DNA from: an uncultured Latescibacterota bacterium
GTDB taxonomy: Bacteria; Latescibacterota; UBA2968; UBA8231
Direction: 5' to 3'
NCBI GenBank assembly: GCA_951813615.1
Contig: OX638377.1
Location: 5,055,739 to 5,119,738 of the forward strand
DNA: 64,000 nucleotides
Shown: positions 15,596 through 37,181 of the stretch, in pieces
How positions within the stretch are numbered: the first letter of the stretch is position 1
Layout: the number at the start of each line of letters is the position of its first letter
Program-made: the position numbers and the translations under genes
Notes under the pieces: generated by a model
Told to the model about the DNA's origin: nothing
The model's input: only the letters and a program-made list of their open reading frames with translations
The model's database searches: none

Positions 15596-16909
15596 GTGAA
15601 CCAACCTGAATCCATCGCTCCGGCCACGGGCAAACTCGGCGTCCTCATTCCCGGCATGGGCGCTGTGGCCACCACGGTTATCGCCGGCGTCGAAGCCATC
15701 AAAGCCGGCATTGGGCAGCCCATCGGCTCGCTGACCCAGATGGGCACCATCCGCTTGGGCAAGCGCACCGAAGGACGCTCGCCGCTCATCAAGGACTTCG
15801 TGCCTTTGGCCGACATCGACAGTTTGGTCTTCGGCGGCTGGGACGTCTTTCCAGAAGATGCCTATGACTCGGCTATCCACGCCGGCGTCTTGGACCAAAG
15901 ACTGCTCGACCAGATCGCGGATCCGCTCAAGGCCGTCAAGCCGATGCCCGCGGTTTTTGACCGCAACTACGTGCGCCGCCTCGAAGGCTCCAACGTCAAA
16001 AGCGCCAAGAGCAAGTGGGATGCCGTGCTGGAAGTGCGCGAAGACATCCAGCGCTTCAAGGCCGACAACGGCGTCGAACGGCTAGTGATGATCTGGTGCG
16101 GCAGCACCGAGATTTTCATGGAGCACCACGAAGTACACGACACCATCGAGGGACTCGAAAAAGCCATCCAGGAAAACCACCCGGCCATTCCCCCGAGCAT
16201 GATCTACGCGTACGCCGCGCTACAGGAAGGCGTGCCCTTTCTAAACGGCGCGCCGAATTTGACCGTGGATGTCCCGGCCATGGTCGAACTGGCGAAGCAA
16301 AAGGGCGTGCCCATCGGCGGCAAGGACTTCAAGACCGGCCAGACCCTGATGAAGACTCTGCTAGCCCCGGGTCTCAAGGCGCGGATGCTCGGCGTGCAGG
16401 GCTGGTTTTCGACCAACATCTTGGGCAACCGCGACGGCGAGGTGCTCGACGACCCCGATTCGTTCAAGACCAAGGAAGTCAGCAAGCTCGATGTGCTGGA
16501 GTTTATCTTGCAGCCTAGCCTCTATCCCGAGCTCTACGGCGATATTTACCACAAGGTGCGGATCAACTACTATCCGCCGCGCGGCGACGAAAAGGAGGGC
16601 TGGGACAATATCGACATCTTCGGCTGGATGGGCATGCCCATGCAGATCAAGGTCGATTTCCTCTGCCGCGATTCGATTCTCGCCGCACCGCTGGTTTTGG
16701 ACTTGGTGCTGTTTGCCGATTTGGCGCAGCGCGCGCAGATGGGGGGGATCCAAGAGTGGCTGTCGTTTTACTTCAAGAGCCCGATGACCGCGCCCGACCT
16801 CTATCCCGAGCACGACCTCTTCATCCAGCTAATGAAGCTCAAGAACACGCTGCGCTTCTTGCGGGGCGAAGATCTAATTACCCACTTGGGTCAGGAGTAC
16901 TACGACTAG
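15596..16909 (+). CDS. ino1: inositol-3-phosphate synthase
   Basis: 437 aa with bacterial/archaeal MIPS-type sequence (GVLIPGMGAVATTVIAG and a GKDFKTGQT region). AAAGGAG lies upstream of the GTG start. Its stop TAG shares the palindrome CTAG with the stop of the convergent regulator. Confidence 0.92.
   Translation: MNQPESIAPATGKLGVLIPGMGAVATTVIAGVEAIKAGIGQPIGSLTQMGTIRLGKRTEGRSPLIKDFVPLADIDSLVFGGWDVFPEDAYDSAIHAGVLDQRLLDQIADPLKAVKPMPAVFDRNYVRRLEGSNVKSAKSKWDAVLEVREDIQRFKADNGVERLVMIWCGSTEIFMEHHEVHDTIEGLEKAIQENHPAIPPSMIYAYAALQEGVPFLNGAPNLTVDVPAMVELAKQKGVPIGGKDFKTGQTLMKTLLAPGLKARMLGVQGWFSTNILGNRDGEVLDDPDSFKTKEVSKLDVLEFILQPSLYPELYGDIYHKVRINYYPPRGDEKEGWDNIDIFGWMGMPMQIKVDFLCRDSILAAPLVLDLVLFADLAQRAQMGGIQEWLSFYFKSPMTAPDLYPEHDLFIQLMKLKNTLRFLRGEDLITHLGQEYYD
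16880..16909 (+). repeat. att-like 30-mer, copy 1 (functional 3' end of ino1)
   Basis: ACCCACTTGGGTCAGGAGTACTACGACTAG recurs at 60055-60084 and 62679-62708. Confidence 0.85.
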
Positions 16910-19900
16910 ACGCCTTTAATACCCAACTTTCTCATTTTGCCGTACAGCGTCGAAGGCGGCACTCCCAGCAGAGCCGCCGCTCCTTGTGCGCCCTTGATCC
17001 GCCAGTTAGTGGCGTTGAGTACTTCGAGAATATAGCGGCGTTCAAATTCAGGGAGAGGCATTATTTCGCGGCCTTGAGAAACGGATAACGCCCTTGCTTT
17101 AAGGCCAACAGTGGGGTCTGTAATGTCAAAACCGCACTGCATGAGATCGGTCGTGCCGATTTGAGAACCATTGCAGGCTATGACTACCCGCTGCATGAAA
17201 TGCTCCAGTTCCCGCACATTCCCCGGCCAATCGTAGGTTTGCAGCATTTCCATAACCTCGGAACCCAAGGAGGCGGGTTCCTTGTCCAGGTAGGCTGCCA
17301 TGCGATTCTTGAAAAACTCGACTAGGGCCGGGATGTCCTCCTTGTGCTCGCGCAAGGGCGGGATGTACAGCGGAAAAAGCTGCAGGCGCGAATACAGTCC
17401 CTCGCGAAAAACACCAACCTGCACCATCTTCTGCAGGTCGCGACTAGTCGCGGCTACAATGCGCGTCTGCGCAGTTAGCGTCTGCTTGCCGCCAACTCGC
17501 TCAAACGTGCGCGCTTCCAATAAGCGCAGGATCTTGTCCTGCGTTTCCAGCGTCATCTCGCCGATTTCGTCCAAAAACAGGGTGCCGTCTTTGGCTAGTT
17601 CCACCTTGCCTACTTCGCTAGTAGAAGTCTTGTTTTCGCACCCAAAGAGTTCACTGTCGATCAACGCTTGGGATGAGGCCCCGCAGTTGACAGATATAAA
17701 AGGGCCGTTGCCATAGGCACTCAACGCGTGTAACACCCGTGCCACTGACTCCTTACCCACACCCGTTTCGCCTAGAATCAGTACGGTCAGATCGGTGGGT
17801 GCCACCTCCGTGAGTTTGGTTTGAAGCTGGCGCAAGCCCTTGGTCTGTCCAATCCATTGGTTACCCCCACAAAATGCGGCCTCCGGTTTTACCGCAAGCT
17901 GCACCTGCGCCGTCTCCGAGTAATTGAGATCCCGATCTATCGCCCGGACTTGAAAAGTGTAATCGCCCGGCGGCAGGTTTCGATAACAGGCTTGCATCTC
18001 TCGGGTCGCGGGCCCCCAGTCGAGGTCGTAGCCCTGCAAGCGATAGACATAGAGCATGTCGCGGGGATGGGTGGAAAAACTCAGGCCCTTGTACTCGAAA
18101 ACCACCGGCTGTCCCACCGTGGAGGAACAGACTTCCGCTAGGTTCTCATAGACCTGATCGGTGGTAACTCGGATGAGACGAATCAGGGGTGGCGTTTGCT
18201 GCGGCCGGTAGCGTATGATGGAACCCACGACCGTGCCGAACCAGAAGGTGCCGTCGCGATCTTCGAGGATGCGGCAAACGGGTCCTATATGAGGAGACTT
18301 GATCGTCTGGAAAAGCCGACCATCGTACTGAGCCACCCCTCGGTCGGTGCCGATCCAGAGGTGACCGCGCGTATCCTCCAACAAACAGCGGATGCGGTTA
18401 CTCGGCAGCCCGTCTTCGGTCGCGAAGGTGCGGAAGGTGCTGCCATCAAAGCAACTGATACCACCCCGCGTAGCGACCCATAGGTTACCCTGGCGGTCTA
18501 CTAGTAGGTCATTGACATGGTTGTCTATCAGCCCGTCTTCGACTCCATACCATGTAAGTCCGTCTTCAGGATGCCAGCGGGCGAAGCCGGTGCCGCTCGC
18601 TAGGCCATCGCTACTGGTCAAATGGAAATAGATTTCATTGTTGCGCGTGGCAATCACCGTGCCAATGCGGCTGTACGGTGTTTTTTTGCTATCCTCCGTA
18701 AAAATGGTTTGGCACTGCTCGCCTTGTTGGTACACGATCTGTAATGGACTGGCCAGAAGCTTCTTTCGTTCGCGTATGGTGTAGTGTTCCCAACAGCCAA
18801 AAATGAATCGTCCTTGCCGATCTTGCGTGATGCTGCTGATCCCCCCTGCGTCTACATCGACCGCTATGTTCTCCTTTTTGAGCGTCTGCCCGTCATAGCG
18901 GAATAGACCTCTTCCACCGCCGAACCATAGGTGCCCCTCAAGGTCTTCGTAGATGGAAAAACAGTTGCCGATACTAAGACTTTTCCCATCGGATACGAAT
19001 GTAAAGTGCTCGCCATCAAAGCGGGCGACGCTCTTGTTATAAACGGGGAGACGGGGCGATACATACCCGATCCATATATCACCTTGCCGGTCTTGCGCGA
19101 TCTGTGAGACTTCATTCGGGTTCTTAGGATAGTTCGCACGAAAGTCAAAAACGCTGATGCTATGCGCATCGTATAGCCCAACGCCGTTCCAAGTGGCGAA
19201 CCAAAACTGATCCTCGCGATCGTGGAAAACGGCTTTGACGGAGGAATGGGGTAGGCCATCGGCCGCGGTAAATCGGCTGAACCCGTCATCGTCTTGGTAG
19301 AACACGCCATCCAACGTGCAAAACCACATCCGGCCTTCCCGGTCGCACATAATCCAGCGCAGCCAACAATTCAAACCGACCTTAACATCCTCGAAGGTGT
19401 TATTGGCGTAGAAATGGAATCGGCCTTTCCGAATCCAACCGATCCACACCTTGCCGGTAGGGTCCTGGCCCACCGCATAACCGTGCTTGTCTCGGGGAAA
19501 ACCCTCATCCGCTTCGTAGCGGTGGAATGATCTGCCATCGTAGCGGACGAGGTTTTCAAAGCCAAACCACAAGTGGCCTTGTGGGTCTTGGACAATGCCC
19601 CGACAAAAGGAGGAGAGCTCCTTCGCAGAAAAAAGCTCCTGGTACTGCTGAAGGTAGAGCGGAGTCAAGTCGTGGAAAGCCGTGCCGTCGTAATACCCCA
19701 AGGTCTCAGTGCCACCGCACCAGATACGACCCTGACGATCCTCGTAGATGAACTGCACAGCCCGGCCGGCAATGCCGTCGTCTTCCAAGGGATGGAAGTC
19801 GGCTCCGTCGTACCAGCAGACCCCCTTTGATGTACCAAACCACAACCGCTCCTGACGATCCGGCTGAATAAAGGAAACTTGGTCGTCAATAAGACCGTCC

Positions 19901-20076
19901 TGTGTAGTGAAATTCTGGAACGCATCGCCGTCAAAGCGGCTGGCTCCGTTATCCCATGTGGCGAACCAGATATACCCTGCGCTATCCTCGGCGATGTGTT
20001 CAATGCGCAGCGATGGCAGGCCATGATCTATGTCATAGGTTTTCCAAGTACCTATGCGGCTCAGTGACTTGATCAT
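16906..20076 (-). CDS. cytoplasmic beta-propeller (Reg_prop/Y_Y_Y-type) sensor fused to an AAA+ sigma-54-interaction-type ATPase and a Fis-type HTH
   Basis: 1056 aa with no signal peptide or TM helix. About 700 aa consist of repeated W/F-G-T..G propeller blades. These are followed by a YYY-like domain (YRLQGYDLDW), Walker A GETGVGKE, Walker B TLFLDEIG, R-finger ERVGG, WPGNVRELE and a C-terminal HTH (AAALLGVPPSTLYGKMRKLGI). The GAFTGA loop is absent. Confidence 0.9.
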   Translation of the reverse strand: MIKSLSRIGTWKTYDIDHGLPSLRIEHIAEDSAGYIWFATWDNGASRFDGDAFQNFTTQDGLIDDQVSFIQPDRQERLWFGTSKGVCWYDGADFHPLEDDGIAGRAVQFIYEDRQGRIWCGGTETLGYYDGTAFHDLTPLYLQQYQELFSAKELSSFCRGIVQDPQGHLWFGFENLVRYDGRSFHRYEADEGFPRDKHGYAVGQDPTGKVWIGWIRKGRFHFYANNTFEDVKVGLNCWLRWIMCDREGRMWFCTLDGVFYQDDDGFSRFTAADGLPHSSVKAVFHDREDQFWFATWNGVGLYDAHSISVFDFRANYPKNPNEVSQIAQDRQGDIWIGYVSPRLPVYNKSVARFDGEHFTFVSDGKSLSIGNCFSIYEDLEGHLWFGGGRGLFRYDGQTLKKENIAVDVDAGGISSITQDRQGRFIFGCWEHYTIRERKKLLASPLQIVYQQGEQCQTIFTEDSKKTPYSRIGTVIATRNNEIYFHLTSSDGLASGTGFARWHPEDGLTWYGVEDGLIDNHVNDLLVDRQGNLWVATRGGISCFDGSTFRTFATEDGLPSNRIRCLLEDTRGHLWIGTDRGVAQYDGRLFQTIKSPHIGPVCRILEDRDGTFWFGTVVGSIIRYRPQQTPPLIRLIRVTTDQVYENLAEVCSSTVGQPVVFEYKGLSFSTHPRDMLYVYRLQGYDLDWGPATREMQACYRNLPPGDYTFQVRAIDRDLNYSETAQVQLAVKPEAAFCGGNQWIGQTKGLRQLQTKLTEVAPTDLTVLILGETGVGKESVARVLHALSAYGNGPFISVNCGASSQALIDSELFGCENKTSTSEVGKVELAKDGTLFLDEIGEMTLETQDKILRLLEARTFERVGGKQTLTAQTRIVAATSRDLQKMVQVGVFREGLYSRLQLFPLYIPPLREHKEDIPALVEFFKNRMAAYLDKEPASLGSEVMEMLQTYDWPGNVRELEHFMQRVVIACNGSQIGTTDLMQCGFDITDPTVGLKARALSVSQGREIMPLPEFERRYILEVLNATNWRIKGAQGAAALLGVPPSTLYGKMRKLGIKGV

Positions 20077-20262: not shown

Positions 20263-20329
20263 AGACCATATATAGTCTAAAATTCATAAAAGACCATATA
20301 TAGTCTTTTATGTCCGACTAAAAATACCC
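20263..20329 (+). promoter_or_regulatory. two 28-bp-phased palindromic boxes (AGACCATATATAGTCT) plus the conserved 15-mer CGACTAAAAATACCC
   Basis: The box cores start at 20266 and 20294. The 22-mer CATAAAAGACCATATATAGTCT is repeated exactly (20257 and 20285). The 15-mer at 20315-20329 is identical to 37286-37300. Confidence 0.6.
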
Positions 20330-20362: not shown

Positions 20363-20426
20363 TCATCAATAAATCACCAATAAAGACCTACAAGTCACCC
20401 AAATATCACCGACAAATACTTATTAT
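20363..20426 (+). promoter_or_regulatory. TCACC direct-repeat module (4 boxes) plus a -10-like TATTAT
   Basis: Boxes start at 20363 (TCATC), 20374, 20395 and 20406, giving spacings of 11, 21 and 11 bp. TATTAT lies 10 nt after the last box. The module is homologous to those at 22682 and 34404. Confidence 0.55.
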
Positions 20427-20657
20427 AGATTATAGAACGCGATTTATTACCGGCGGTGTGGGATACCAATATTCTTCCGCGACCATAAGCCTTCCGAGCC
20501 CGTGTAGTAGGATATCCATGTGCCGCTCGGTTGGCGACTACTCGGGCGAGAAACAACGTGCCGAGCCGCCTTGAGGTATGCGTTGTCGAGCCGCGTTGAG
20601 GGTCCGCGTTGGACCTTACGAGGCTATCAACCAACAATAAGGAGCTTATAGAAAAGC

Positions 20658-21383
20658 ATGATTTGTCGTCTTACCATCCTGCTGCTGGGCTTCGCCGCGC
20701 TGTTCGTTCTTTCCGGCCCGGCGCAAGCCCAGACCACGATCTGGTCGGCCACGCTGACGCCGAAGTCTTTCTCGAATTCGGTGGGCTGCGACAACGCCCA
20801 ACTTCAACAGTCTAGGAAATGCAGCAACAGCAACAGGCTGAGCGAGGACGATTTCACCGATGACGGTACGAGTTACCGGGTCAGAAAAATCGTTGGCAAG
20901 AATAATGGAGACCTGAAATTCCAGCTCACTGCGCAGGCCACTACCGCCACCCAGACACTGACACTGATGATTGGCGGCGCGTCATACGCTCTGGCGGACG
21001 CCGCTCACACGACCCCCAGCAACAGGAGTACTTGGAAGTGGAGTAACGCCAACCTGAGTTGGAGTGCCGACACCGACGTCGCCGTGTCGCTCGTTGCGAT
21101 CGACGCCACCGCCACCGGCCAGCCGAGGATTTTCGGCGCGCCACAGGTGGGCAAGACGCTGACCGCGCTGATCGACGACATCGAAGACGGCGCGGGACTA
21201 CCGGCTGGGCTATCAGCTAACCCTGTTGAAGGATGCCGCCGTACGCTTCGAACTAGGAGTCGATGCCACGCGCCGCGAGGCCCTGCGCCAAGGCGAGGAG
21301 GACCATCGCGTTCTGGGCCGCATCACGACGCGCTGGTAAACGCCACGGATCCTAGGGTGGAAGGTAACGGACGTATCCTATGA
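20658..21383 (+). pseudogene. deletion remnant of an autotransporter-type giant adhesin gene (signal peptide plus first modules fused out of frame to the last ~47 barrel codons)
   Basis: The N-terminus is MICRLTILLLGFAALFVLSGPAQA|QTT. The motif GQPRIFGAPQVGKTLTALIDDIEDGAG matches the PTISGAPQVGELLTADTSGIEDTDG modules of the giant genes. From about 21196 a different frame reads DYRLGYQL...DHRVLGRITTRW*, which resembles the barrel end ARLGYRL...DHFVGMRAGMRW*. The current ORF may still yield a 241-aa secreted product. Confidence 0.55.
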
Positions 21384-22510
21384 GGAAGTGGGTCTGTGTA
21401 GTTTTGATGTTGTCTGGTATGAGTGTAGTATGGGTAGCTTGTTCGGTGGATCATCCGGTAGCCCCTTTGGGGCCAGCGGCAAAAATGACCACGAACGATT
21501 CGTCTGAGCGGCACTATATCCACTGGACCTGTGGTGCCAACGAATGGTCCCTACCAGCCGACTCCGTGTGGACGATCTTCTATGGCTCCAATCGGTTCTA
21601 CACGGATGGGCAGCGCGTCCAGATCTCCGAGTATCTCACCCCCAATTCCAGGCGCGTCTATTGGGCCGCTGAGACGGCCAGTGAACGATACAAGCGCGCC
21701 AGCGCTGGCTTGGTGCTGTCCGATAACACCTGCGCCCTTTGGAGCGACCTGATTGACCGGGACACCTCTGTGGTCCGCATCTATCGCGGTGAGGTCAAAT
21801 GGCACTACCGGGACTATCCGGATCATTCTCAATACGCGCTGGTAGAAAACGAGGAGACCTACCGCATCGCCTATGTCCGGGACAGCTTGGTGGTTCACCG
21901 AGATTTTGACTACTGGTTCGACCGCGATCCACACCCGACGGCCTTGGGCGACGCCCAGGCGTACTATCCTTTCAACTTCAGTCAGACCGCCATAGACACT
22001 CTGCCGAACGTGCCCGAAGATGACCGGCCCTACTTGCTTGATGTGGTGTGCGTCGGCGACGAGCTCCCTGAGTTCTTACGGCCAACGGCGACGCAGACGA
22101 CGGTGCGGTCTGCGGGTGGAGGAGGTGATGACAGCTACATTGGTGTTCAGTCCTCTGAAGAGGCGGAGGATCTTACTCCGGTGGCAATAGATTGTGGCTC
22201 GGTCCCGCAAGAGGTTCTCGATTCCCGCGGTTTGTTAGATGAGCTTCAAGAAAATCGCGACGAAAATCATGCTGTTTGGGCGGAGGAAGTGCAGGCTTTT
22301 ATCGAAAGTCTTGGTATCGAAGAGCTAAAGGAATGTCTTGTTCCGTTGAGCTATGAGCCTCTTACGTATCGCTATGACCCTCCTTGTACAGAGCATAATG
22401 AAGCATATGTTGCGCATAAGGAAACGGACCATCTGTTTAACGCTGCGCAAAGAGCTTTGGAGCAACTGGAAGAAGAGCATGGAATTGCTCCTGAATGTCG
22501 ATCTTTGTAG
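21380..22510 (+). CDS. hypothetical lipoprotein (orphan)
   Basis: It has a signal peptide with a lipobox-like VWVAC. I recognise no known motifs. The C-terminus is acidic and helical. The start overlaps the preceding stop (ATGA). Confidence 0.6.
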   Translation: MRKWVCVVLMLSGMSVVWVACSVDHPVAPLGPAAKMTTNDSSERHYIHWTCGANEWSLPADSVWTIFYGSNRFYTDGQRVQISEYLTPNSRRVYWAAETASERYKRASAGLVLSDNTCALWSDLIDRDTSVVRIYRGEVKWHYRDYPDHSQYALVENEETYRIAYVRDSLVVHRDFDYWFDRDPHPTALGDAQAYYPFNFSQTAIDTLPNVPEDDRPYLLDVVCVGDELPEFLRPTATQTTVRSAGGGGDDSYIGVQSSEEAEDLTPVAIDCGSVPQEVLDSRGLLDELQENRDENHAVWAEEVQAFIESLGIEELKECLVPLSYEPLTYRYDPPCTEHNEAYVAHKETDHLFNAAQRALEQLEEEHGIAPECRSL

Positions 22511-22681
22511 TTGACGCCCAAGGCTTATAGGTAGTCAGCCGCCGCTAACTGTCCCCAAAAGCGCGACCCCAACGTACCATCCCGGAACACGCCGCCCACA
22601 CTCCCTTGCGGCTCCTACGCCATCTATCGCCGGTCTGCCCAATGGCCCAGCTAGGGCCAATTATGCCGTATGGGCAAAATG

Positions 22682-22768
22682 TCACCAATAAATCACCGGA
22701 AATGTCACCAATAAATCACCGAACCAGACCTGCAAGTCACCCAAATATCACCAATAATTTTGTAGTTT
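22682..22768 (+). promoter_or_regulatory. TCACC direct-repeat module (6 boxes) plus a -10-like TAGTTT
   Basis: Boxes start at 22682, 22693, 22705, 22716, 22737 and 22748, giving spacings of 11, 12, 11, 21 and 11 bp. An A/T hexamer lies 10 nt after the last box. Confidence 0.55.
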
Positions 22769-22815
22769 AAAAGGCAATGTTGTGGGGTCCCAAGACGGAG
22801 GCATGTGGAGAACTT

Positions 22816-28800: not shown

Positions 28801-31551
28801 GTGGTGCTGGAGAGCCAGCCGACGGGCACGGTCACGGTGACGCCGAGTGTCAGCGGTGATTCGGACGTGACGGTGGCTCCTTCGACGCTGACGTTCACAG
28901 AGGACAACTGGGATCAGCCGCAGACGCTGACGGTCTCGGCGGCGCAGGACGACGATGCGGACGACTCGTCTGCGACCATAACGCACGCGGTGTCCGGCGG
29001 CGACTACGGTTCGGAGACAGCGGACGATGTAGAGGTAACGGTCACCGACAACGATGTAGTGGCGATTCATACAGCTTCGATCACACTGTGCGGTGCCACG
29101 CTAGGGTCGACGACGGGCGTTGCGTATGATTCATCAGTGGACATATGCTGGGACACCGAGGGGCCGATCCCCATGGGCAGCGACGTGGTGATCGAGGAGC
29201 GCGTCAAGAAATTCCAGGATTACCCCGATCCGTTTTCCTCGTGGCAGGAAATCGCGCGCGGCAACAACTTCACGCCGTGCTCCTCGGACGACAACAGTTG
29301 CGTGAAATACACGCGCACCGGCTTGATGCGGGCAGAGTCTTTCACGCAGGAGTTGCGCATCCGCCGAGGTAGCGATGTCTTGGGGACCTCGCCACAACTG
29401 GAGGCGGCCGCACCCAACAGCAACGAGAACGGGTTGCAGGCGCAGCTATCGCAGGCCATAGACGAGGACACTTGGGCCTTTATCGAAAAGCCAACGGGGC
29501 CGTTCGTGGTAGGGCTGGTATTCAGCGAGCCTGACTTGGGCGCGCTGTATTCAGAAGCTGTGCGTGGCCTTAAGACGGACGACTTTCGGATGACCAACGG
29601 CACCGTGACCGCCATCGAAGGCTGGAACGGCGGATCCTACAAAGTCCGCGTTACGCCAACCACGCTGGGCGAGCCGGTGACGATCAAGCTGAAGGCAAAA
29701 ACGGTCCGGGGCGTTGGTGAAGGCATCACGGATGCCGGCAAGAACGCCTTCACGCGCAGGAACACCGGATCGAACAAGGTCGTGCAGCAAACCGCTGCCG
29801 CCGCTGGGAAGGTGACCGCCACGCCGGGGCTGTCGGTGGCCGACGCCGAGGTGGATGAAGGCCCGGACGCGACGCTCTCGTTCCAAGTAACGCTCAGCCG
29901 AGCGGCCTCGGGTTCAGTGGCCGTGGACTGGGCGACGGCGGACGGCACGGCGACGGCGGGGCAGGATTACACCGCCGCCCGTGGCACGCTCACCTTCGCC
30001 AGCGGCGAGACATCACAGACGGTGACCGTGACCGTGCTCGACGACGCGCACAACGAGGGCACGGAGACCCTCACCCTCACGCTCTCGAATCCGTCGGGCG
30101 CGCGGATTACCGACGGCACGGCGACCGGTACGATTATAAACAGCGACCCGATGCCCCAAGCATGGCTGGCGCGGTTCGGGCGCACAGTGGCGGACCAAGT
30201 GCTGACGTCAGTGAACAATCGAGCGCGGACGGCGCGGGCGCCGGGCTTCGAAGCCCGAGTCGCCGGACAGCGGCTTGAGGGCCTATTGGCGTCAGACGAA
30301 GAAGAGGAGCCGGAGGCGGCACGCCACCAGAAGGTGGACGGATACTCCAGCAAACGCGACGAGCGGGGAACGTGGTTGCGAGAGGTGACGGCACGTGACT
30401 TCGTCACCGGCTCCTCCTTTGCGCTGACGGGCGAAACGCAAGAGAGTGGCTTGGGTTCGCTGTGGGGACAGGGAACCCTCGCACGCTTCGACGGGCGCAA
30501 GGGCGACCTCTCGCTCGACGGCGAGATTCTGAGCAGCTTGTTGGGTGCGGACTGGACGAGAGGACGTGGGATCGCGGGAGTCTTACTCTCGCACGCACAG
30601 GGCAAGGGCGACGGGGATGGCGCGATGGAATCGACGCTGACCGGCCTCTATCCCTACGGGCACTATGCCATAGACGATCACCTGTCGGCGTGGAGCGTTT
30701 TCGGCTACAGTCGCGGCGAGCTGGCGCTGGTACCGACAGGCGGGACAACGCTGGAGGCCGGCATCGGCTTGGCCATGGCCGCAGCAGGTGCCCGGGGTAC
30801 GGTACTCGACGGGGACCGCAACGGGCTGACGTTGGCGCTAATCTCGGATGGGATGGCGATGCGGACGACCTCGGAGGCGGTTGAGGGCTTGGTGTCGTCG
30901 GAGGCGGATGTGACGCGGCTCCGACTCGGGCTTGAAGGATCGCGACCGCTACGGCTCGAAGGCGGGTCGGTGCTGACGCCCGCCATCGAGATCGGCGCGC
31001 GCCACGACGGCGGCGATGCAGAGACCGGCTACGGTGCTGACCTCGGGGCGGCGCTGGCGTGGTCGTACCCCAAACGCGGTCTGAAGGCCAAGGTCCAAGG
31101 TCGCGGGCTGGTTGCCCACCAAGACAGCGACTTCCAGGAGTGGGGCTTCGCCGGCTCGCTCGCTTGGGACCCGACGCCAGCCTCCGAGCTCGGGCCGTCG
31201 TTTACGCTCCAAGAGACCGTAGGAGCGGCGGCGACGGGCGGGATGCGGGCTCTGATGCAACGAGATTCCCCAGCGGATCTGACGACGAACGAGGTTCGCG
31301 GCGGCGGGCGGGTCGAAGCTGAGATCGGCTATGGCCTGCCAGTGTGGCGCGGGCGATTCGCCGGCATTCCCTCCTTCCGGTTCGGCTCTGCCGGCGGCGG
31401 CCGGACTGCTCGGCTCGGTTACCGGCTGAGTCCAATCAGTGCCGAGGGCTGGCAACTCAAACTGGCCGTCGAGGCCATGCGCCGAAAAAGCGCCAACGCC
31501 AACCGGCCGACCGACCACTTTGTCGGAATGCGCGCTGGGATGCGCTGGTGA
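22816..31551 (+). CDS. giant secreted multidomain adhesin-like protein (2911 aa): LRR, Calx-beta, FN3 and SwmB-like modules with a C-terminal autotransporter-type beta-barrel
   Basis: GGAG lies 5 nt upstream of the ATG at 22816 (the ORF track starts at 22777). The signal peptide ends LLLCAATVQA. Repeated EGTDYA..LTI.AG.TSGTASFTLTPTDD units are Calx-beta modules. GYKVQWKSG marks an FN3 module. The protein ends ...GMRAGMRW. Confidence 0.9.
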   Translation: MKHAGRYSLPSNPESTARPSGRLRLWCGLAAGLLLCAATVQAGPATGKPTISGAPQVGELLTADTSGIEDTDGLGTFSYQWIQVDDLTETNILGATSSTYTPVAADIGKTLKVKVNFTDGEGNAETLTSDAYPSAGYPVVAIVAAKTTCPTDSDWCAELGVGYQGIFSVGGTDLYLGYDVGSGEGHLGTLSDTDVSHGESTYAFASIKFVSRSGISYVQVKLDGPMPMGTVFNLGGTTFTANPVDWTYLSPGNGEYKFITPSGFGMVEGQKMTVSVNFPADVTDNSGDVIDPPISSRTRAVKAAIVAASGVQTAAAVTAEHLANITTLDLSEKSITSLTAGDFNGLTQLVQLDLNNNDLSSLPSGIFSELTALKNLDLSDNRLSALPAGLFDDATALREVQLQFNELSTLPAGIFKNSSELRDFDVEQNNLTSLPADIFQDTPKLYRLFMRQNELESVSSDLVSGLSNLFLFHIGFNNLDSLPAGFFVGLTNLKWLYVMGSTSSYTTPFTVSLEKVEDGKVKAVIREGAPYDIQVHVTVENGSLADDATLIAIPQGVVESEAIAVTRTPGTTGAVTVDIERYGVTLPTGLPVHRGFELVKPTTGLPVEIYAEVALSLSTSSVDEDAGATSITVTGTLNGTTRTADTPVTVAVGTSSDTATEGTDYATVNDLTLTILAGETSGTASFTLTPTDDDVDEADETLSVSGTTTATDLSVTGTTATIVDDDERGVEVSATTLSVSEGGTATYTVALESKPTDTVTVALSASGDADVTVSPSSLSFITENWSTAQTVTVSAAPDAAARGDRAMIAHAASGGDYGSVSIDAVSVTVAPGQVTGVTVSAGIEELTVTWDAVSNADGYKVQWKSGSETFASAATDNREATIASGTTTSYAITGLTNGTAYSVQVIATRANSDDGTASAPATAMPVAQARITSVEFTNVPSSGVYGLGSTIEVSARFDAAVEVTGMPQIQLTFPSTTMSNKYVHYDDAASTDRVLVFKRLVTGDDDEEESGIRVDTNSLELNGGTIKSKGTSVNADISHSYVTGPNAKTRWVESIAVTSEAAAGRVYGPDEKIEFTVTFESPVYVDQTGGNPQLFFQARNSSTTHAAAYESGTGTKELVFAWTVPAAVADDGADLVVPSNVYNLSAGVGLHNDRGLVLNGGAIENRSGIAVNIRHEEHDLGVQVDTTTPVLASGADGATVDGTTLVLTFQNPNNSNLPDQLDENSVPTPTDFAVTVAGSAQTVSSVDVSGATVTLSLASPVGYAQTVTMGYTPGTNPVQDLAGNDAASIADHSVRNDSPQPSLSIQDATVAEDAGTAAFTVTLDVASGELVAVDYATADGTGAAGSDYTAASGTLTFAAGETTGTIEVAVADDAIDEEDESFTVTLSNPVTATIASATATGTITDDDTASTEATLSVSLVAMSEDAGATTVTVTAELDESARTSATEVTVSVGDSGDGATEGTDYATVSDFTLTIAAGQTTGTATFTLTPTDDDVDEEDETLTVDGTVQGLTVTATTLTIEDDDTRGIALSPTSLTVAEGGSKSYAIVLESQPTADVTVSVTVPSGTEVSVDNTALTFTTSNWDQVQTVTVSAAQDADAEDGVATITHAVSGGDYSTMTADDVAVTVNDDETASTKVTLSVSLASVSEDAGATTVTVTAELDEAPRVDDTSVTGTVGASGDSATEGTDYATVSDITLTIAAGQTSVTASFTLTPTDDAIAEEDETLTVDGTVQGLTVTATTLTIEDDDTRGIAVSPTNLTVAEGRSKSYTVVLSSQPTADVTVTPSVSGDSDVTVAPSKLTFTEDNWDQPQTVTVSAAQDADAEDASATIAHAVSGGDYGSIAAEDVEVTVTDDEIASTKVTLSVSATSVDEDAGSTSVTVTAELDESARTSATEVTVSVGAVGDGATEGTDYATVSDFTLTIAAGQTTGTASFTLTPTDDAIDEDDETLTVDGAVQGLSVTRTTLTIEDDDTRGIAVSSTDLTVDEGAGSSTYTVVLESQPTGTVTVTPSVSGDSDVTVAPSTLTFTEDNWDQPQTLTVSAAQDDDADDSSATITHAVSGGDYGSETADDVEVTVTDNDVVAIHTASITLCGATLGSTTGVAYDSSVDICWDTEGPIPMGSDVVIEERVKKFQDYPDPFSSWQEIARGNNFTPCSSDDNSCVKYTRTGLMRAESFTQELRIRRGSDVLGTSPQLEAAAPNSNENGLQAQLSQAIDEDTWAFIEKPTGPFVVGLVFSEPDLGALYSEAVRGLKTDDFRMTNGTVTAIEGWNGGSYKVRVTPTTLGEPVTIKLKAKTVRGVGEGITDAGKNAFTRRNTGSNKVVQQTAAAAGKVTATPGLSVADAEVDEGPDATLSFQVTLSRAASGSVAVDWATADGTATAGQDYTAARGTLTFASGETSQTVTVTVLDDAHNEGTETLTLTLSNPSGARITDGTATGTIINSDPMPQAWLARFGRTVADQVLTSVNNRARTARAPGFEARVAGQRLEGLLASDEEEEPEAARHQKVDGYSSKRDERGTWLREVTARDFVTGSSFALTGETQESGLGSLWGQGTLARFDGRKGDLSLDGEILSSLLGADWTRGRGIAGVLLSHAQGKGDGDGAMESTLTGLYPYGHYAIDDHLSAWSVFGYSRGELALVPTGGTTLEAGIGLAMAAAGARGTVLDGDRNGLTLALISDGMAMRTTSEAVEGLVSSEADVTRLRLGLEGSRPLRLEGGSVLTPAIEIGARHDGGDAETGYGADLGAALAWSYPKRGLKAKVQGRGLVAHQDSDFQEWGFAGSLAWDPTPASELGPSFTLQETVGAAATGGMRALMQRDSPADLTTNEVRGGGRVEAEIGYGLPVWRGRFAGIPSFRFGSAGGGRTARLGYRLSPISAEGWQLKLAVEAMRRKSANANRPTDHFVGMRAGMRW
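23780..24315 (+). other. leucine-rich-repeat block (about 8 repeats) inside the 2911-aa protein
   Basis: It shows a 24-aa periodicity of the form L..L.L..N.L..LP.G.F, for example LDLNNNDLSSLPSGIFSELTALKNLDLSDNRLSALPAGLF. Confidence 0.85.
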
Positions 31552-31651: not shown

Positions 31652-34036
31652 CTATCCTTTTGGCATTCGGTAGCCGACGCGAGGCTCGGCAAAGATGTAC
31701 GTGGGGTTACTCGCGTCGTCGCCCAGCTTGCGGCGGAGTCTCCGGACGAGGGTGCGGAGCACCCGCACATCGCCGGAGCTAGTCAGGCCCCATACCCTGC
31801 GCAGCAACTGGGCGTGGGTCAACACCCGTCCGGCGTTGACCGACAGCTCAAAGAGCAGTTCGTACTCCGCGGCGGTCAGTTGCACCGGCTGGCCAGCTAT
31901 CGTCACGTAGCGCTTGGCATAGTCAATGGTCAGGCCGTCCAGCACGTAGGGTTCCGACGGCTCGGCCTGATATGGATTCGTCTGCCGGCGCAGGGCCGCT
32001 CGGACCCTCGCTACTAACTCCGTTGGCGAGAAGGGCTTGACGATGTAATCGGTGGCCCCCTGCTCAAAGGCCCGTGCGATGACTTGGTCCTTGCCGTACC
32101 CAGAGACGAAGATGATCGGCACATCGGCAGTACGGCGGATGGACTTCATCAGGTCGATTCCGTCGGAGTCGGGCAGCACTAGGTCGAGCAAGACCAAGTG
32201 GGGCCTTTTCTCCTCTGTGAGAAGAAGCGCATCTTGGGGGTCCGGGGTCACTATCGACGTGAAGCCCCCCTCCGAAAGCGCGTCCCGGATGTACCTCAGC
32301 GCTTGGGGGTCGTCGTCCACCACCAAAATGCAGGCATCCTCGCTCTTTTCCTGCTCCGGGTGGGTGGCGAGCTGAGGAGACTGGGTTGTTGCACTCGTCC
32401 CGGCCTCTTCGACCACCGGGATGGTGAAGGTAAACCGCGCGCCGAGGCCCAGCCCGCCGCTCTCAGCCCAGATGCGGCCACCGTGCGCCTCTACGATCCC
32501 CTTGCAGATGGCAAGGCCCAGACCCGAACCGCCCGTTTCGCGTTTCCGGTCCTCGCCGTCGATCTGGGAAAACTTCCTAAACAGGTGCGGCAACCGATCG
32601 GCGGGTATCCCTCTGCCCGCGTCGGTGACGGAGATCGCCACGTAGAGCTCCTCCCGCACGACGGCCACCTCAATGGCGGACGACTCCAGCGAGTGCCTTG
32701 CCGCGTTGGCAAGGAGGTTATCCAAGACTTGGACGATGCGTTGTCGGTCTGCCATGACCAAGGGCAGGTCTGGTGCGAGGTCGAGATTGAGAGCGTTACT
32801 CTCGCTGCCACTTAGAAAGGTGTTCCTGGCTCGGTCCACCAAGCTGGCAACCTCCGCTGGTTCGGGATGGACCGGCAAGGTGCCCGTCTCGATGCGCGCC
32901 ACGTCCAGCAGATCGCCGATCAGCCCGCGCATGTGGTCGACCTGCTGGACGATAATCTGGTGAAACTGGCGCGACTCGGCGGGGTCCAAGTCGGCTGAGG
33001 CCTCCAGCAGAGTGGTTGCAGAGCCTTTAATAGAGGTCAGCGGGACGCGCAACTCGTGGCTCACCATTCCGAGGAACTCGGCTCGCAGTCGCTCCAGTTC
33101 CTCCAGCGGTGTCATGTCCTGTAGCGTGACGATGACCGACTCGACCTCGCCGTCCTCCGAATGGATGGGCGTGGCGTTTACCAGCGTGGTCACCGACCGG
33201 CCGTCAGGGGCCTGAATGACGATCTCCTCGGTGCGGACGACCTCGCTGCTACTCAACACCTGCGCGAGGGGAAAATCGCCCAGAGCTATCTCGCTCCCAT
33301 CCGCACGTCGGATGGTAACCATATTGATGAGCTGCTCTATAGAGTCTCCTGGCATCCGCAGGTCTTTTATAATCCTTCGGGACTCCCGGTTGAGGGATAT
33401 CGGTACGCCCGTCTGGGCGTCGAAGACTGCCACGCCTACAGGAGAGGTGTTGATTAAGGTTTCTAGGTCGGCTCTGGCCCGTCGCTCGTCGCGGTACTTG
33501 CGGGCGTTGGAGATGACCAGCGCCGCTTGGGATGCAAACATGACCAAGAGCTCCTCGTCTTCGCGGGTGAACTCTTGCCCGAGACCCCTCTTTCCCAAGT
33601 AAATGTTGCCCGTGTTCTCGCCTTGGTAGTGGATCGGGGCCCCTAGGAAGGCGCTTACGCTCAGCTCAGCGGGGAGGGCAAACTCGGGAAGGCCCTGCGA
33701 TCTACTGTAGCTGGTAAAGTCCCGGACTCTCAGCGGTCCCGAAATGTTGCTTAGGCGTTCTAATAACTTATCCCCTTCGGGAACCTCCCATAACCGTTGG
33801 CTCTCCTCGACCGTCAGGCCAGAGGCCAAGAAATCTTCCACCTGCCTTGAATCGTCCAAGGTGATGATCACGCCGTACCGGGCGTCGGTCAACGACCGGG
33901 CGCTGTCCAAGATCCCCTGCAATACCGTGTCGAGGTCGAGGCTTTCGTTGATGCGGAGGCTGGCCTCGCTCAGCTTGGAAAGGCGGTTTTGTAGTGTCTC
34001 TATCTTCTGTTGGTCACGCTCGTCAGCGTTCTTCAA
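31652..34036 (-). CDS. single-polypeptide two-component system: GAF-PAS-HisKA-HATPase-REC-OmpR/PhoB-type winged helix
   Basis: 794 aa with no TM helix. The H-box is SHELRVPLTSIKG. The G-boxes are DAGRGIP and GGSGLGLAI. The receiver has ILVVDDDP...LVLLDLVLPD...KPF. The wHTH region has LTAAEYELLFEL...VRRLRRKL...VGYRM. GGAGGAG lies 5 nt upstream of the TTG start. Confidence 0.9.
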   Translation of the reverse strand: MKNADERDQQKIETLQNRLSKLSEASLRINESLDLDTVLQGILDSARSLTDARYGVIITLDDSRQVEDFLASGLTVEESQRLWEVPEGDKLLERLSNISGPLRVRDFTSYSRSQGLPEFALPAELSVSAFLGAPIHYQGENTGNIYLGKRGLGQEFTREDEELLVMFASQAALVISNARKYRDERRARADLETLINTSPVGVAVFDAQTGVPISLNRESRRIIKDLRMPGDSIEQLINMVTIRRADGSEIALGDFPLAQVLSSSEVVRTEEIVIQAPDGRSVTTLVNATPIHSEDGEVESVIVTLQDMTPLEELERLRAEFLGMVSHELRVPLTSIKGSATTLLEASADLDPAESRQFHQIIVQQVDHMRGLIGDLLDVARIETGTLPVHPEPAEVASLVDRARNTFLSGSESNALNLDLAPDLPLVMADRQRIVQVLDNLLANAARHSLESSAIEVAVVREELYVAISVTDAGRGIPADRLPHLFRKFSQIDGEDRKRETGGSGLGLAICKGIVEAHGGRIWAESGGLGLGARFTFTIPVVEEAGTSATTQSPQLATHPEQEKSEDACILVVDDDPQALRYIRDALSEGGFTSIVTPDPQDALLLTEEKRPHLVLLDLVLPDSDGIDLMKSIRRTADVPIIFVSGYGKDQVIARAFEQGATDYIVKPFSPTELVARVRAALRRQTNPYQAEPSEPYVLDGLTIDYAKRYVTIAGQPVQLTAAEYELLFELSVNAGRVLTHAQLLRRVWGLTSSGDVRVLRTLVRRLRRKLGDDASNPTYIFAEPRVGYRMPKG

Positions 34037-34190
34037 TTCATCTCCTCCATCGGGATGCGGAATGTGTGGTTATAGGATCATTGAGGTTTTTAAACCAGAA
34101 AAAGCTACCTGTTTGGTGGACATACAACGTCGTCTGTCATACGACTGAATCGAGCAGATTGGAGAATTTTAGAACAGTCTTTATTAGGGG

Positions 34191-34236
34191 CCATATATGG
34201 TCTTTTTTAATTAAAGGGCTATATATGGTCTTTTTT
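34191..34236 (+). promoter_or_regulatory. two 28-bp-phased palindromic boxes (CCATATATGGTCTTTTTT / CTATATATGGTCTTTTTT)
   Basis: The cores start at 34191 and 34219. They lie in the AT-rich region between the divergent HK-RR gene and the 34685 gene. Confidence 0.6.
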
Positions 34237-34403: not shown

Positions 34404-34467
34404 TCACCAAGAAATCACCGAAACAGACCTGCATGTCACCCACAAGTCACCAAGAAATTTTTAATAT
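34404..34467 (+). promoter_or_regulatory. TCACC direct-repeat module (4 boxes) plus a -10-like TAATAT
   Basis: Boxes start at 34404, 34415, 34436 and 34447, giving spacings of 11, 21 and 11 bp. TAATAT lies 10 nt after the last box. Confidence 0.55.
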
Positions 34468-34684
34468 AGTATTGTTGTGTTGTGGGGTGCTAAGAATGTC
34501 TCCAAAGATCATAAGCCTTCCGAGTCCAGCAGGATAACCGTGTGACGCTCGGTTGGCGGCCACTTTGTCGGGATGAGGGCGAGAAAGGGAGGAGTGGGCA
34601 CGGGAACGGATCACCGAATCAGGATCGGAATGCTGCTGCTCTCAAAAGGAAAGAAAAGCGAGAGGTAGAGCATACAGGAATAAA

Positions 34685-34921
34685 TTGATGGGTATTTCAA
34701 CGATGAGACGAATGGGGCGTCGCCACGAGCCTAGTGCTGGTCGGCACGAAGAGCGAGGGCAGGATAACCAGCCGGCGCTTGCACGGGCCGCGTCTCCAGC
34801 CGGGTCCCTTCTGGTGTTCCTTGCCCTGTTCGCCTGCGTCGCCATGATGGCCCCCCAGCCGCCCACGCGCAGACGGACAGCGACACGATTCCCACCGCGA
34901 GGCTCAAGAGCCTCACGGTGA
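34685..34921 (+). CDS. 5' segment encoding the signal peptide of the downstream ORF, separated from it by a frameshift in a C6 tract
   Basis: This frame encodes ...GSLLVFLALFACVAMMAP and then runs into Arg-rich nonsense. One extra C at 34851-34856 would read MMAPPAAHA|QTDSD... straight into the 34918 ORF. Confidence 0.6.
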   Translation: MMGISTMRRMGRRHEPSAGRHEERGQDNQPALARAASPAGSLLVFLALFACVAMMAPQPPTRRRTATRFPPRGSRASR

Positions 34922-36984
34922 CGCCGGTCACCGGCAGCCTCGTCTGGTTCAAGCCGGCGTTCCGCAAGGGACACCGGGGTCCCTACACCGCCTGGGTGAC
35001 GCACGACGCGACCGAGGTGACCCTTGATGCGGTGGCGACATGGGAACAGGCCCGGGTGGAGATGCCGGACGACGTGAACGGCATCGAAGGCACGCAGATC
35101 GAGGTACCGGCGGACGCGAGGAAGGTCCGTCTGATCAAGGTGTTCACCGGCCCCGAGGACCAACCCTGCCGGGAGGACTTGAGGCTGTGCTATTCCTATT
35201 CGCTCATCGTCAAGCGCCCGGGCAGTGCGCTGACGGGCGAGCTGGAGAAGCGCCCGTCGGTGACCGACGGCGGGTCGCTCCGCTACCGCTTCAGGGTCAA
35301 GCTAAGCGCGCCGGTCGAGCTCTCGCTCTCGGAATGGCAGAGCGACGTATTCACCGTCACCAACGGCACGATCACTGCCGCCAAGCACGTCGGCGGCGTG
35401 GGGTCGGGCCCCAACGGCGAACCGCTGGCCAAGACCTGGGACCTGACGGTGAACCCGACGGCCAACAGGACGGAGGTCGAGTACACGAGCAAGTCGAGTT
35501 GCACCGTGACCGGGGCGGTGTGCACGGTGGGCGGGCTGAAGCTCGGCAGCTTGAATTCGCTCACTTTCCGTAGAGGGGCGGATGGTGTGCCGAATGTCTC
35601 CATCGCGGACGCGAGCGCGATCCCGGAGGACGGGGAAATCGTGTTCACCGTCAGCATGACCAAGGCCTCGGACCATTACGCATATGTCGGCTTCCGAACC
35701 ATCGACTCCGGCGACGGAATGGGCACCGCCACGCCGAGCGAGGACTACCGGCCGCAGACCACTAAGCTCGTCATCCCCCCCGGAAAGACAGAGGTGAGCG
35801 CGGGCGTCGCCCTCATCACGGACCCGGAGGCCACCACCGAGAAGACGATCGAGGTGCAAATCGAGAACGCGAGGCTGGTCAACGGCAACCAAACGCTCTA
35901 CACGCTCCCGATCGATCGGGGCACGGCGACGGGCAGGATCGACTGTCGCGCCACGACCCGCACCCACTGCGGCATCGAAGTGGGCGAATCGGTCATCGGC
36001 AGGCTCGCCAGCACTTCCGACCGGGACTGGTACAGAGTGACGTTCGAAGCGGGAAAGGCCTACAGGATACACATGCCGGCAGGGATCGTCGATCCGCACT
36101 TCCATGGTGTGTACGACGATGGTGGCACGCTGATCGACGGCACGGCGAACGACGACGCCAGCGATGGCGACCTCGCAAGTACGGTCCATTTCCAGCCGAC
36201 GCGGAGCGGCGTTTACTACCTCTCGGCAGGGTCCAGCATCGGCGCCGGTCGATACAATCTCACCGTGACAGAGCTTGTCGATGACTGTTCTGCCAATACG
36301 GGCACCACCTGTTCGGTCACCGTGGGCGGTTCAGCCAGCGGGGAGATTCAGTTCGTTGGCGACCGGGATTGGCACGAGGTGCAGTTCGTATCGGGAACGG
36401 AGTACCGGATCGATCTGAAGGGTGAGGATGAGGACGCCTCCTTGACGCTGCCCGATCCGTACTTCCACGGAATCTACGACGACAGCGGCAATGTCATCAG
36501 CAATACGGAGAACGACGACGGCCTTGGTTCCAATGCAGGCAGCCGGGTCACGTACACGGCGACTCGGACCGGCGCCCACTATCTTTCCGCGGGTAATTTC
36601 GAGAGTGACGACGTACACCCGGATGATGCCGTCGGCACGTACAAGCTCGAGGTGACCGACACGAACTCTGGAAAGGTGGTGGTGGACGACCCGCTGGCCC
36701 TGCCCGACCGCCCTCAGTTGGCGCAGAACGCACCCAATCCATTCAACAGTCAGACAGTGCTGGCTTACTTCTTGCCCGCGGCCGGGCCAGTGCGCTTAGA
36801 CGTGTTTTCGTTGACCGGACAGCGAGTGGCCGTCTTGCAGCACGGGCTGCAACAGGCCGGCTATCACCAACTGCGCTGGCAGGGCCGCGACGACGCAGGG
36901 CATCCCCTCGCCAGCGGCATATATCTGTATCGACTAGTGACCTCAGAAGAGATTTTGACCCGCAAGCTCATCCTGCTGCGATAG
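34918..36984 (+). CDS. secreted protein with cadherin-like, Calx-beta and 2x PPC (pre-peptidase C-terminal)-like modules and a T9SS-type C-terminal sorting domain
   Basis: LKSLTVTP... indicates a cadherin-like beta sandwich. EDYRPQTTKLVIPPGKTEV indicates Calx-beta. DRDWYRVTFEAGKAYRI and DRDWHEVQFVSGTEYRI indicate PPC modules. The C-terminus is LAQNAPNPFNSQTVLAYFL...SGIYLYRL...KLILLR. The real N-terminus probably lies in the 34685 ORF. Confidence 0.85.
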   Translation: MTPVTGSLVWFKPAFRKGHRGPYTAWVTHDATEVTLDAVATWEQARVEMPDDVNGIEGTQIEVPADARKVRLIKVFTGPEDQPCREDLRLCYSYSLIVKRPGSALTGELEKRPSVTDGGSLRYRFRVKLSAPVELSLSEWQSDVFTVTNGTITAAKHVGGVGSGPNGEPLAKTWDLTVNPTANRTEVEYTSKSSCTVTGAVCTVGGLKLGSLNSLTFRRGADGVPNVSIADASAIPEDGEIVFTVSMTKASDHYAYVGFRTIDSGDGMGTATPSEDYRPQTTKLVIPPGKTEVSAGVALITDPEATTEKTIEVQIENARLVNGNQTLYTLPIDRGTATGRIDCRATTRTHCGIEVGESVIGRLASTSDRDWYRVTFEAGKAYRIHMPAGIVDPHFHGVYDDGGTLIDGTANDDASDGDLASTVHFQPTRSGVYYLSAGSSIGAGRYNLTVTELVDDCSANTGTTCSVTVGGSASGEIQFVGDRDWHEVQFVSGTEYRIDLKGEDEDASLTLPDPYFHGIYDDSGNVISNTENDDGLGSNAGSRVTYTATRTGAHYLSAGNFESDDVHPDDAVGTYKLEVTDTNSGKVVVDDPLALPDRPQLAQNAPNPFNSQTVLAYFLPAAGPVRLDVFSLTGQRVAVLQHGLQQAGYHQLRWQGRDDAGHPLASGIYLYRLVTSEEILTRKLILLR

Positions 36985-37055
36985 CTTGACAGCGCGCTTC
37001 GAAGCAATACCCCCACGCCACGCACGACGGTAGCGAGTTTACCTTTTGTACGCAG
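36695..37055 (+). repeat. duplicated T9SS-CTD coding end plus ~70-bp 3' flank (partner 59646-59996)
   Basis: The CTD codons are roughly 85-90% identical by eye. The flank TAGCTTGACAGCGCGCTTCGAAGCAATACCCCCACGCCACGCACGACGGTAGCGAGTTTACCTTT is identical. Confidence 0.85.
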
Positions 37056-37181
37056 TAGCACTCTATCTTGGGGTGTATCGAAAACTGTGACCCAAGACCT
37101 ACGCCTTCAAGCCGTCCGACAATTCTGAGTTCCCCCTTTTCCTCCTTCAGATTACAGCTAGACAATCTTTCTTCAAAAAGA

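Follow-up and report, generated by a model that had tools for sequence, protein, structure and literature searches.

Phased TCACC arrays as candidate operators of a GAF-PAS-HK-REC-wHTH regulator family

PHO boxes consist of 11-nt direct-repeat units, each with a 7-nt core and an A/T-rich remainder, that are bound head-to-tail by a winged helix (PMC4415409). The core reads CTGTCAT in E. coli and GTTCACC in Streptomyces, the number of units varies among operators, and the promoter-proximal pair sits in place of the -35 element (PMC4415409). In cryo-EM structures, M. tuberculosis PhoP occupies DNA as a single dimer or as two or three dimers in tandem, of which the downstream dimer lies over the -35 and displaces sigma R4 (PMC11825685). 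The Bacteroides HTCS combine HK, receiver and DNA-binding output in one polypeptide that regulates neighbouring loci (PMC11253607).

Here we analyze the window, by which we mean the whole stretch of 64,000 nucleotides introduced above, in which three promoters carry phased arrays of TCACC boxes. We propose, with a probability of roughly 0.65, that these arrays are operators for the wHTH domain of a family of GAF-PAS-HK-REC-wHTH proteins, here most likely the copy encoded at 31652-34036. The pho-box/OmpR activator layout that the sequence-only reading of this DNA had recognized in them agrees with the geometry of the published PHO-box and PhoP complexes (PMC4415409, PMC11825685).

Array geometry and the genes behind it

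The arrays lie, to the base, where they had been placed from the sequence alone, and each is followed by a putative -10 hexamer.

20363-20410, + strand: locus 1 array, TCATC at 20363, TCACC at 20374, AGACC at 20384, TCACC at 20395 and 20406
20421-20426, + strand: putative -10 TATTAT, 10 nt past the last box of locus 1
22682-22752, + strand: locus 2 array, TCACC at 22682, 22693, 22705 and 22716, AGACC at 22726, TCACC at 22737 and 22748
22763-22768, + strand: putative -10 TAGTTT, 10 nt past the last box of locus 2
34404-34451, + strand: locus 3 array, TCACC at 34404 and 34415, AGACC at 34425, TCACC at 34436 and 34447
34462-34467, + strand: putative -10 TAATAT, 10 nt past the last box of locus 3

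A four-unit matrix scores the three loci at 60.3, 63.4 and 58.3 bits, respectively, and locus 1 agrees with the four-box consensus at 19 of 20 positions. The layout of pairs 11 bp apart that step by 21 bp is as first described, but the 16-nt "spacer" is not empty: when the copies are anchored on the last box, it holds a degenerate in-phase box, AGACC, at all three loci. The arrays thus contain five units at loci 1 and 3 and seven at locus 2, with a spacing of 11/10/11/11, and locus 2 owes its additional pair to the tandem duplication of 23 bp (22682-22704 and 22705-22727). As four turns are covered in 43 bp, all units of an array should fall on one face of the helix. The same head-to-tail direct repeats, with a period of 10-11 bp, are found in all modules of two species. 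The 11-nt unit has the consensus A-W-R-T-C-A-C-C-n-A-A, with information content peaking on T-C-A-C-C; the T, C and A are each present in 26/26 units, and the base 3 nt 5' of the box is an A in 24/26.

Within the window, TCACC-N6-TCACC with at most one mismatch occurs 15 times, compared with 5.08 +/- 2.25 times in dinucleotide shuffles, and none of 100 shuffles reached 15. The three loci account, on the + strand, for all six exact matches and for one of those with a single mismatch; the other eight, which also have a single mismatch, fall within the repeat-rich giant genes. At a threshold of 16 bits, a two-unit position weight matrix returns only seven sites, which score 27.8-31.7 bits and belong without exception to the three loci; the total from 30 block-shuffled windows was one such match, or about 0.03 per window. 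Among the window copies, identity is 97% in the boxes, 71% at the non-box positions of the module and 22-33% in the flanks. With the 11-nt pair held fixed, a pair-to-pair offset of 21 yields 12 matches of at least 16/20, and any other offset between 15 and 29 yields 0-6; enrichment at this offset alone indicates that the array is specific in its spacing.

The hexamers had been reported to follow the last box after exactly 10 nt, which is accurate at all three loci, and by sequence a TAnnnT hexamer behind a 10-nt gap is kept in 7/7 modules of the two species. No TTGACA-like -35 had been seen, and promoter calling indeed returned no sigma70-type -35/-10 pair, with a canonical -35 located 16-18 nt from the -10, at any of the three loci. 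By sequence, the position of the -35 is taken, at a fixed distance from the putative -10, by the proximal pair of units. The promoter of the 7301-aa giant gene, also described as lacking the module, has a canonical TTGACA-17-TAAATT at 37329-37357 instead. An ECF-sigma or sigma54 promoter was considered and rejected, as box-to-hexamer distances of 10 and 21 nt misfit a 16-17-nt spacer and GG-N10-GC was not seen on inspection. Iterons or recombinase arm sites were likewise rejected: the arrays keep a fixed distance from a -10 and the sense of the gene, and neither replication nor integrase genes were found nearby.

The genes behind the modules are as follows.

20658-22510, + strand: locus 1 genes, for proteins of 241 aa and 376 aa
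22816-31551, + strand: giant secreted protein (LRR, fn3, SWM_repeat, Calx-beta), behind locus 2
34918-36984, + strand: 688-aa secreted protein (Calx-beta, PPC, T9SS type A sorting domain), behind locus 3

The 241-aa protein has a signal-peptide-like N-terminus. The 376-aa protein belongs to no Pfam or NCBIfam family, and a 74%-identical ortholog is encoded directly behind module 98c in a second species (L098). The mechanical ORF of the giant gene at locus 2 starts at 22777; its true start is probably the ATG at 22816, which is preceded 5 nt upstream by GGAG and gives the protein a signal-peptide-like N-terminus (MKHAGRYSLPSN...LLLCAATVQA). The 688-aa protein matches TIGR04183 with 36.6 bits against a cut-off of 23. 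The N-terminus of the 7301-aa protein matches the product of the gene behind module 98d, so this giant gene is one that has a module in the species of L098. Behind the modules, in the window as in L098, there are neither phosphate-uptake nor phosphatase genes (for a PHO box proper, pst, pho or ugp genes); the modules instead precede genes for LRR/Calx-beta/T9SS-sorted proteins and for small proteins of unassigned family.

The motif GTGTTGTGGGGTnCyAAGA is conserved just 3' of the putative -10 at all three loci (20455-20469, 22777-22797 and 34477-34495), where it would fall at the very 5' end of the predicted transcripts, and L098 modules a and b have the related cTTGTGGAGTTTCAC. Furthermore, the leaders of loci 1 (20484-20537) and 3 (34510-34559) have CATAAGCCTTCCGAG...GCTCGGTTGGCG in common, a sequence similar to the N-terminal coding part (TATTCCCTTCCGAG) of the locus 2 gene. 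A hairpin in these two leaders (CCGAGC...GCTCGG) was rejected as a structured RNA since it is no stabler than shuffles (z = 0.26 and 0.36), and what the two leaders have in common is therefore probably left over from a 5' coding end that was duplicated. Homology to the locus 3 leader is also seen in that of the 7301-aa gene (about 37385-37410, CTTTGTCGGGATGAGGG). An Rfam scan of the whole window matched no family, and the conserved leaders thus do not correspond to any known RNA.

The window also contains a second element that is specific to the island, the palindrome AGACCATATATGGTCT, with seven copies (at most three mismatches), compared with 0.04 expected, in three clusters with a 28-bp period.

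20263-20306: palindrome cluster upstream of the locus 1 module
34188-34231: palindrome cluster 152-195 nt upstream of the regulator start
37179-37250, with a partial copy near 37263: palindrome cluster just upstream of the sigma70 promoter of the 7301-aa gene

A related palindrome, AAGACGATATATCGTCTT, lies between two modules in L098. The palindrome may be the operator of another dimeric regulator, and a sigma54 activator gene adjoins the first cluster: the product of 16906-20076 (- strand), which is divergent from locus 1, is a sigma54 enhancer-binding protein (Sigma54_activat, HTH_8) whose sensor is a fused Reg_prop/Y_Y_Y beta-propeller, the sensor type of the Bacteroides HTCS with a different output here. 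At the far end of the window, the 7301-aa ORF ends at 59352 and the FlgD_ig/T9SS-type C-terminal domain is found on an ORF of its own, of 151 aa (59479-59934), which suggests that the giant gene is split, frameshifted or mis-assembled. The last codons of the 688-aa gene and the sequence downstream (36960-37040) are repeated near-exactly after this 151-aa ORF (59900-59990). The 3' parts of the two giant genes are 97% identical over 300 nt (30223-30522 and 58024-58323), and because all other repeats of these genes are far more diverged, this suggests recent gene conversion between them.

The fused regulator and the arrays at regulator promoters

The candidate regulator is encoded next to locus 3.

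31652-34036, - strand: fused regulator, 794 aa, TTG start, divergent from locus 3

Its domains are GAF (residues 33-175), PAS (191-308), HisKA (318-385), HATPase (430-541), REC (570-679) and an OmpR-type wHTH (715-791). The H-box reads SHELRVPL, the REC Asp lies in LLDLVLP and the Lys in VKPF, and the N-terminus is hydrophilic with no evident membrane segment. With Pfam scores of 95.3 bits for Response_reg and 71.6 bits for Trans_reg_C, the protein has the REC Asp and Lys and the C-terminal Trans_reg_C of an OmpR/PhoB-family response regulator. The best solved relatives of the REC-wHTH part align over its full length and are MtrA (1e-39), KdpE and RegX3 (E = 1e-39 to 1e-36 for these three), PrrA and RpaA. 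All NCBIfam equivalogs compared are below their cut-offs (MtrA 173.2 bits against 300, PhoB 151.9 against 296.2, KdpE 150.7 against 325), as are the best matches of the kinase part, PnpS and PhoR.

The sequence-only reading had named this as the only OmpR/PhoB-type winged helix of the window, and none was found in the other window ORFs that were scanned. It had also spoken of the island's regulator; the protein is not specific to the island but a member of a conserved multi-paralog family with several copies per genome. The architecture is common to more than 100 clusters at 72-80% identity, and the source names of the homologs are Gemmatimonadota, by which both the family and the window were assigned to this phylum. 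Single genomes have at least three paralogs with almost identical recognition helices, so the sequence does not single out the responsible paralog. In one 6.9-Mb genome, two of them (L111, 7222-9615 and 10001-12406) are divergent, each with its own phased array in their common 385-nt intergenic region, and a third (L112) has no array by the four-unit matrix.

Arrays of GGTGA boxes, the reverse complement of TCACC, are found with their spacing kept upstream of regulator genes in other genomes. We scanned 22-kb regulator loci using a matrix made from target-promoter units only, with four units at 11/20-22/11. One match of at least 22 bits was returned per locus (L097, 25.4 bits; L099, 51.1; L100, 56.5; L101, 46.1; L111, 34.4), the array upstream of the regulator in L098 scores 54.5 bits, and that of L110 is weak; the same four-unit scan of 20 block-shuffled windows gave no match of at least 15 bits. 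In L097-L101 and L111 the arrays, spaced 11/20-21/11 as in the target promoters, lie 114-127 nt upstream of the TTG start, on the opposite strand, and nowhere else in the loci except for L098's own modules. The neighbours of these regulator genes are unrelated, among them an ilvD/DRL context and phage-defence genes, which indicates that the array travels with the regulator gene.

Read as the reverse complement, locus 2 and module 98d are homologous to this regulator-upstream region, and the homology takes in its conserved (C/T)ATAAT as well as the beginning of the leader. In the window the homology extends into the following feature.

22600-22681, - strand: relic of a regulator promoter and leader, CATAAT at 22665-22660 and then GGCCC..GCTGGGCC

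The relic is homologous to the regulator-upstream regions in L097-L101, L110 and L111, and no regulator gene follows it. From the homology of locus 2 and 98d, the island modules appear to derive from the promoter cassette of the regulator. The window's own regulator is without the proximal array seen in its relatives, the nearest array being locus 3 at 368 nt from the TTG start; on this comparison, it is a regulator that has lost its proximal array.

In the regulator promoters, the box nearest to the gene overlaps a weak -35 (TTGGTG-17-CATAAT), which suggests that the fused regulator is autoregulated through the array over its own -35. Because the units here are in the opposite orientation, this regulation could have either sign, and the same protein could not act at these promoters by the same contact geometry. 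Box sequence and protein sequence also appear to be linked: where '..GDVR..' precedes the recognition helix, the unit closest to the regulator's promoter is TCACC, and where '..RDVR..' does so, the units are TCAT(A)/TCAC(R). This comparison of 2 against 5 related sequences hints that the box co-varies with the residue in front of that helix. In a third lineage (L113), a homolog of the 376-aa protein (72% identical) is encoded with neither a regulator nearby nor a module. Thus, of the earlier proposal that the arrays are operators of the fused regulator of an island, the operator part is favoured by co-location, by homology and, as a negative co-occurrence only, by the absence of both elements in L113, while the idea of an island-specific regulator is abandoned.

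Could another regulator of the OmpR/PhoB type own these arrays, be it the organism's phosphate regulator of the PhoB/PhoP type, in which case they would be PHO boxes in the strict sense, or a different paralog of the fused family? We regard this as unlikely, although several observations point in its direction. The (A/G)TCACC box has its TCAC core in common with the CTGTCAT of E. coli and differs little from the GTTCACC of Streptomyces; an 11-nt unit at 10 nt from the -10 is the PHO-box layout, and E. coli pho promoters follow a 10-nt distance rule to the -10. Such a core and geometry are also what a PhoB/PhoP-type regulator would recognize, the kinase part of the fused protein has PnpS and PhoR as its best, sub-threshold matches, and near-identical paralogs are at hand in each genome. 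The genes behind the modules, however, encode T9SS cargo and secreted proteins rather than phosphate functions, both in the window and in L098, and the fused protein falls far short of the PhoB equivalog cut-off. Additionally, at six loci or more, whose neighbouring genes are unrelated, an array is present upstream of the fused-regulator gene, and the boxes appear to differ by regulator clade, which would be unexpected for a single conserved global regulator.

Conservation of the arrays between species

Comparison with related genomes bears on whether the boxes are conserved for a function or are a remnant of duplication. Loci 2 and 3 are kept in a near-identical strain (L096). In the second species, L098, the regulator is 80% identical and is surrounded by five modules, which precede genes for secreted FlgD_ig/T9SS-type proteins. 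Pairwise comparison of seven modules from the two species, in a gapless alignment, gave between-species identities of 89% for the four boxes and 90% for the middle box, AGACC. The hexamer is 71% identical, the positions of the module outside the boxes 64% and the 10-nt gap 50%. In the flanks, identity is 27% over the 40 nt upstream and 29% over the 34 nt downstream.

Conservation begins a few bases 5' of the first box and ends at the hexamer. In module 98d the spacers are non-homologous and the middle box is AAGCC rather than AGACC, and the boxes are still 88% identical. The sequence-only reading had staked its claim on the boxes being better conserved than their flanks, and this comparison, 89% against 27-29% between two species, comes out in its favour. 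A profile with such sharp edges and a peak on T-C-A-C-C is what we would expect of a promoter-operator and not of a decaying duplicate, with the caveat that target-promoter modules come from two species and a near-identical strain, so part of the conservation signal reflects common ancestry.

A strict four-box scan of GTDB species genomes returned 93 stretches, and the sole match in Gemmatimonadaceae (L068) is a GC-rich repeat within ORFs; the others are from scattered taxa and a Myroides repeat family. In JGI metagenomes, a pattern that fits all 8 known copies gave 8 matches, all of the wrong composition and attributed to chance. The arrangement TCACC-N6-TCACC-N16-TCACC-N6-TCACC occurs many times in three Myroides genomes (L003, L014, L015, L027, L033, L049, L061, L072 and L073), and looks either like a dispersed repeat with no relation to the arrays or, in this genus of Bacteroidota, like a family of similar operators.

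The conservation profile bears on two further explanations. It is conceivable that the boxes act through DNA shape, as phased A-tracts that confer curvature or resemble an UP element, or through a protein without a winged helix. The units do open with an A-rich run (AAAT before the box) phased at about 10.75 bp, of which the A 3 nt before the box is nearly invariant. The information peak lies on the box itself, however, and not on the A-runs, which vary at two of their three positions; the degenerate middle unit retains ACC. Direct repeats of 11 bp are, in addition, the signature of OmpR/PhoB wHTH dimers (PMC4415409, PMC11825685), and we consider an action through shape or through another type of protein very unlikely. 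That the module is a relic of recent promoter duplication, with boxes under no selection, deserves hardly any credence: the three window copies and 98a-c are paralogous, with a leader and even N-terminal coding sequence in common, and the L098 copies are near-identical over more than 100 nt, but the flanks are at random level between species, 98d and the regulator-proximal arrays keep boxes and spacing despite unrelated spacers, and all seven modules keep TAnnnT at its fixed distance.

Proposed mechanism and comparison with known systems

Returning to the fused regulator family as the owner of the arrays, we propose the following mechanism. The soluble GAF-PAS sensor would control autophosphorylation of the H-box histidine, from which the phosphoryl group would pass to the REC Asp of the same polypeptide or dimer. 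Once activated, the wHTH domains would bind the 11-nt direct-repeat units head-to-tail, so that two dimers (three at locus 2) align on one face of the helix. The promoter-proximal pair, predicted to cover about -41 to -20 and to end 10 nt before the TAnnnT hexamer, would replace the -35 by touching sigma region 4 and the beta flap, in the way of PhoB and PhoP at PHO boxes. The genes activated would be those of giant T9SS-type surface or secreted proteins and of small secreted proteins. In relatives, the reversed array over the regulator's own -35 would imply autoregulation, with the island modules being copies of the regulator-promoter cassette.

A wider hypothesis, which we offer tentatively and would sooner bet against than for, is that the box array and the regulator's own promoter make up a self-contained, bidirectional cassette, copies of which, lacking the regulator gene, came to lie ahead of genes for giant T9SS surface proteins. 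Through it, the soluble one-polypeptide system would directly set the surface repertoire of Gemmatimonadota cells, and the family would have radiated into several paralogs per genome, the circuits of which are insulated by the co-variation of box and residue (TCACC with GD, TCAYR with RD).

Gemmatimonadota are abundant in soils and rarely cultured, and to our knowledge their gene regulation is almost unstudied. If confirmed, the system would unite all parts of a two-component switch in a compact form, with an operator that is defined, and would be tied to the control of giant T9SS-sorted adhesin-like proteins. Phosphotransfer within one molecule to an OmpR-type output could be modelled on it, and synthetic biology could use it as a part. 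The array itself offers a precise cis-regulatory code, with an 11-nt unit, a fixed geometry, a fixed distance to the -10 and a named candidate regulator. As the mechanism follows the known PhoB/PhoP paradigm, a specialist may find it neat and not surprising.

Like the PHO boxes of PhoB in E. coli and PhoP in Streptomyces coelicolor, the arrays are tandem 11-nt direct repeats with a TCAC core inside 7 conserved nt, an A/T-rich remainder, a number of units that varies among operators and a promoter-proximal pair in place of the -35, and it is only through this TCAC that they resemble CTGTCAT and GTTCACC, which are consensuses of E. coli and Streptomyces. Unlike PHO boxes, they have an (A/G)TCACC core, five or seven units and a fixed degenerate middle unit, AGACC, and unlike the Pho systems they would serve surface-protein targets through a kinase-fused candidate regulator that scores below the PhoB equivalog cut-off. 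By analogy, then, the arrays may work like a PHO box without being one, since they precede genes other than those for phosphate and the regulator is no PhoB equivalog. The M. tuberculosis PhoP complexes, with 2, 4 or 6 PhoP molecules on one to three PHO boxes and cooperative binding of the tandem dimers, match in layout the two pairs of loci 1 and 3 and the three pairs of locus 2; the pair step of 21 nt through a degenerate unit and the architecture of the regulator are different.

With respect to the regulator, MtrA, KdpE and RegX3 are stand-alone proteins with separate kinases, although the REC-wHTH part of the fused protein aligns with them over its full length. A shallow search of the literature, which is weak evidence of absence, found no characterised fusion of HK, REC and an OmpR-type output. 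The Bacteroides HTCS have HK, REC and output in one polypeptide, as does the fused regulator, and both belong to the FCB-related part of the bacterial tree (PMC11253607). The HTCS are transmembrane proteins with a periplasmic sensor and an AraC-type output; the fused regulator has neither the periplasmic sensor with its membrane segments nor the AraC HTH, having instead a cytoplasmic GAF-PAS sensor, in which the GAF begins at residue 33, and an OmpR-type winged helix (Trans_reg_C) as output. Taken together, we would class the system as a variant of the one-polypeptide two-component regulator, with its closest counterpart in the Bacteroides HTCS.
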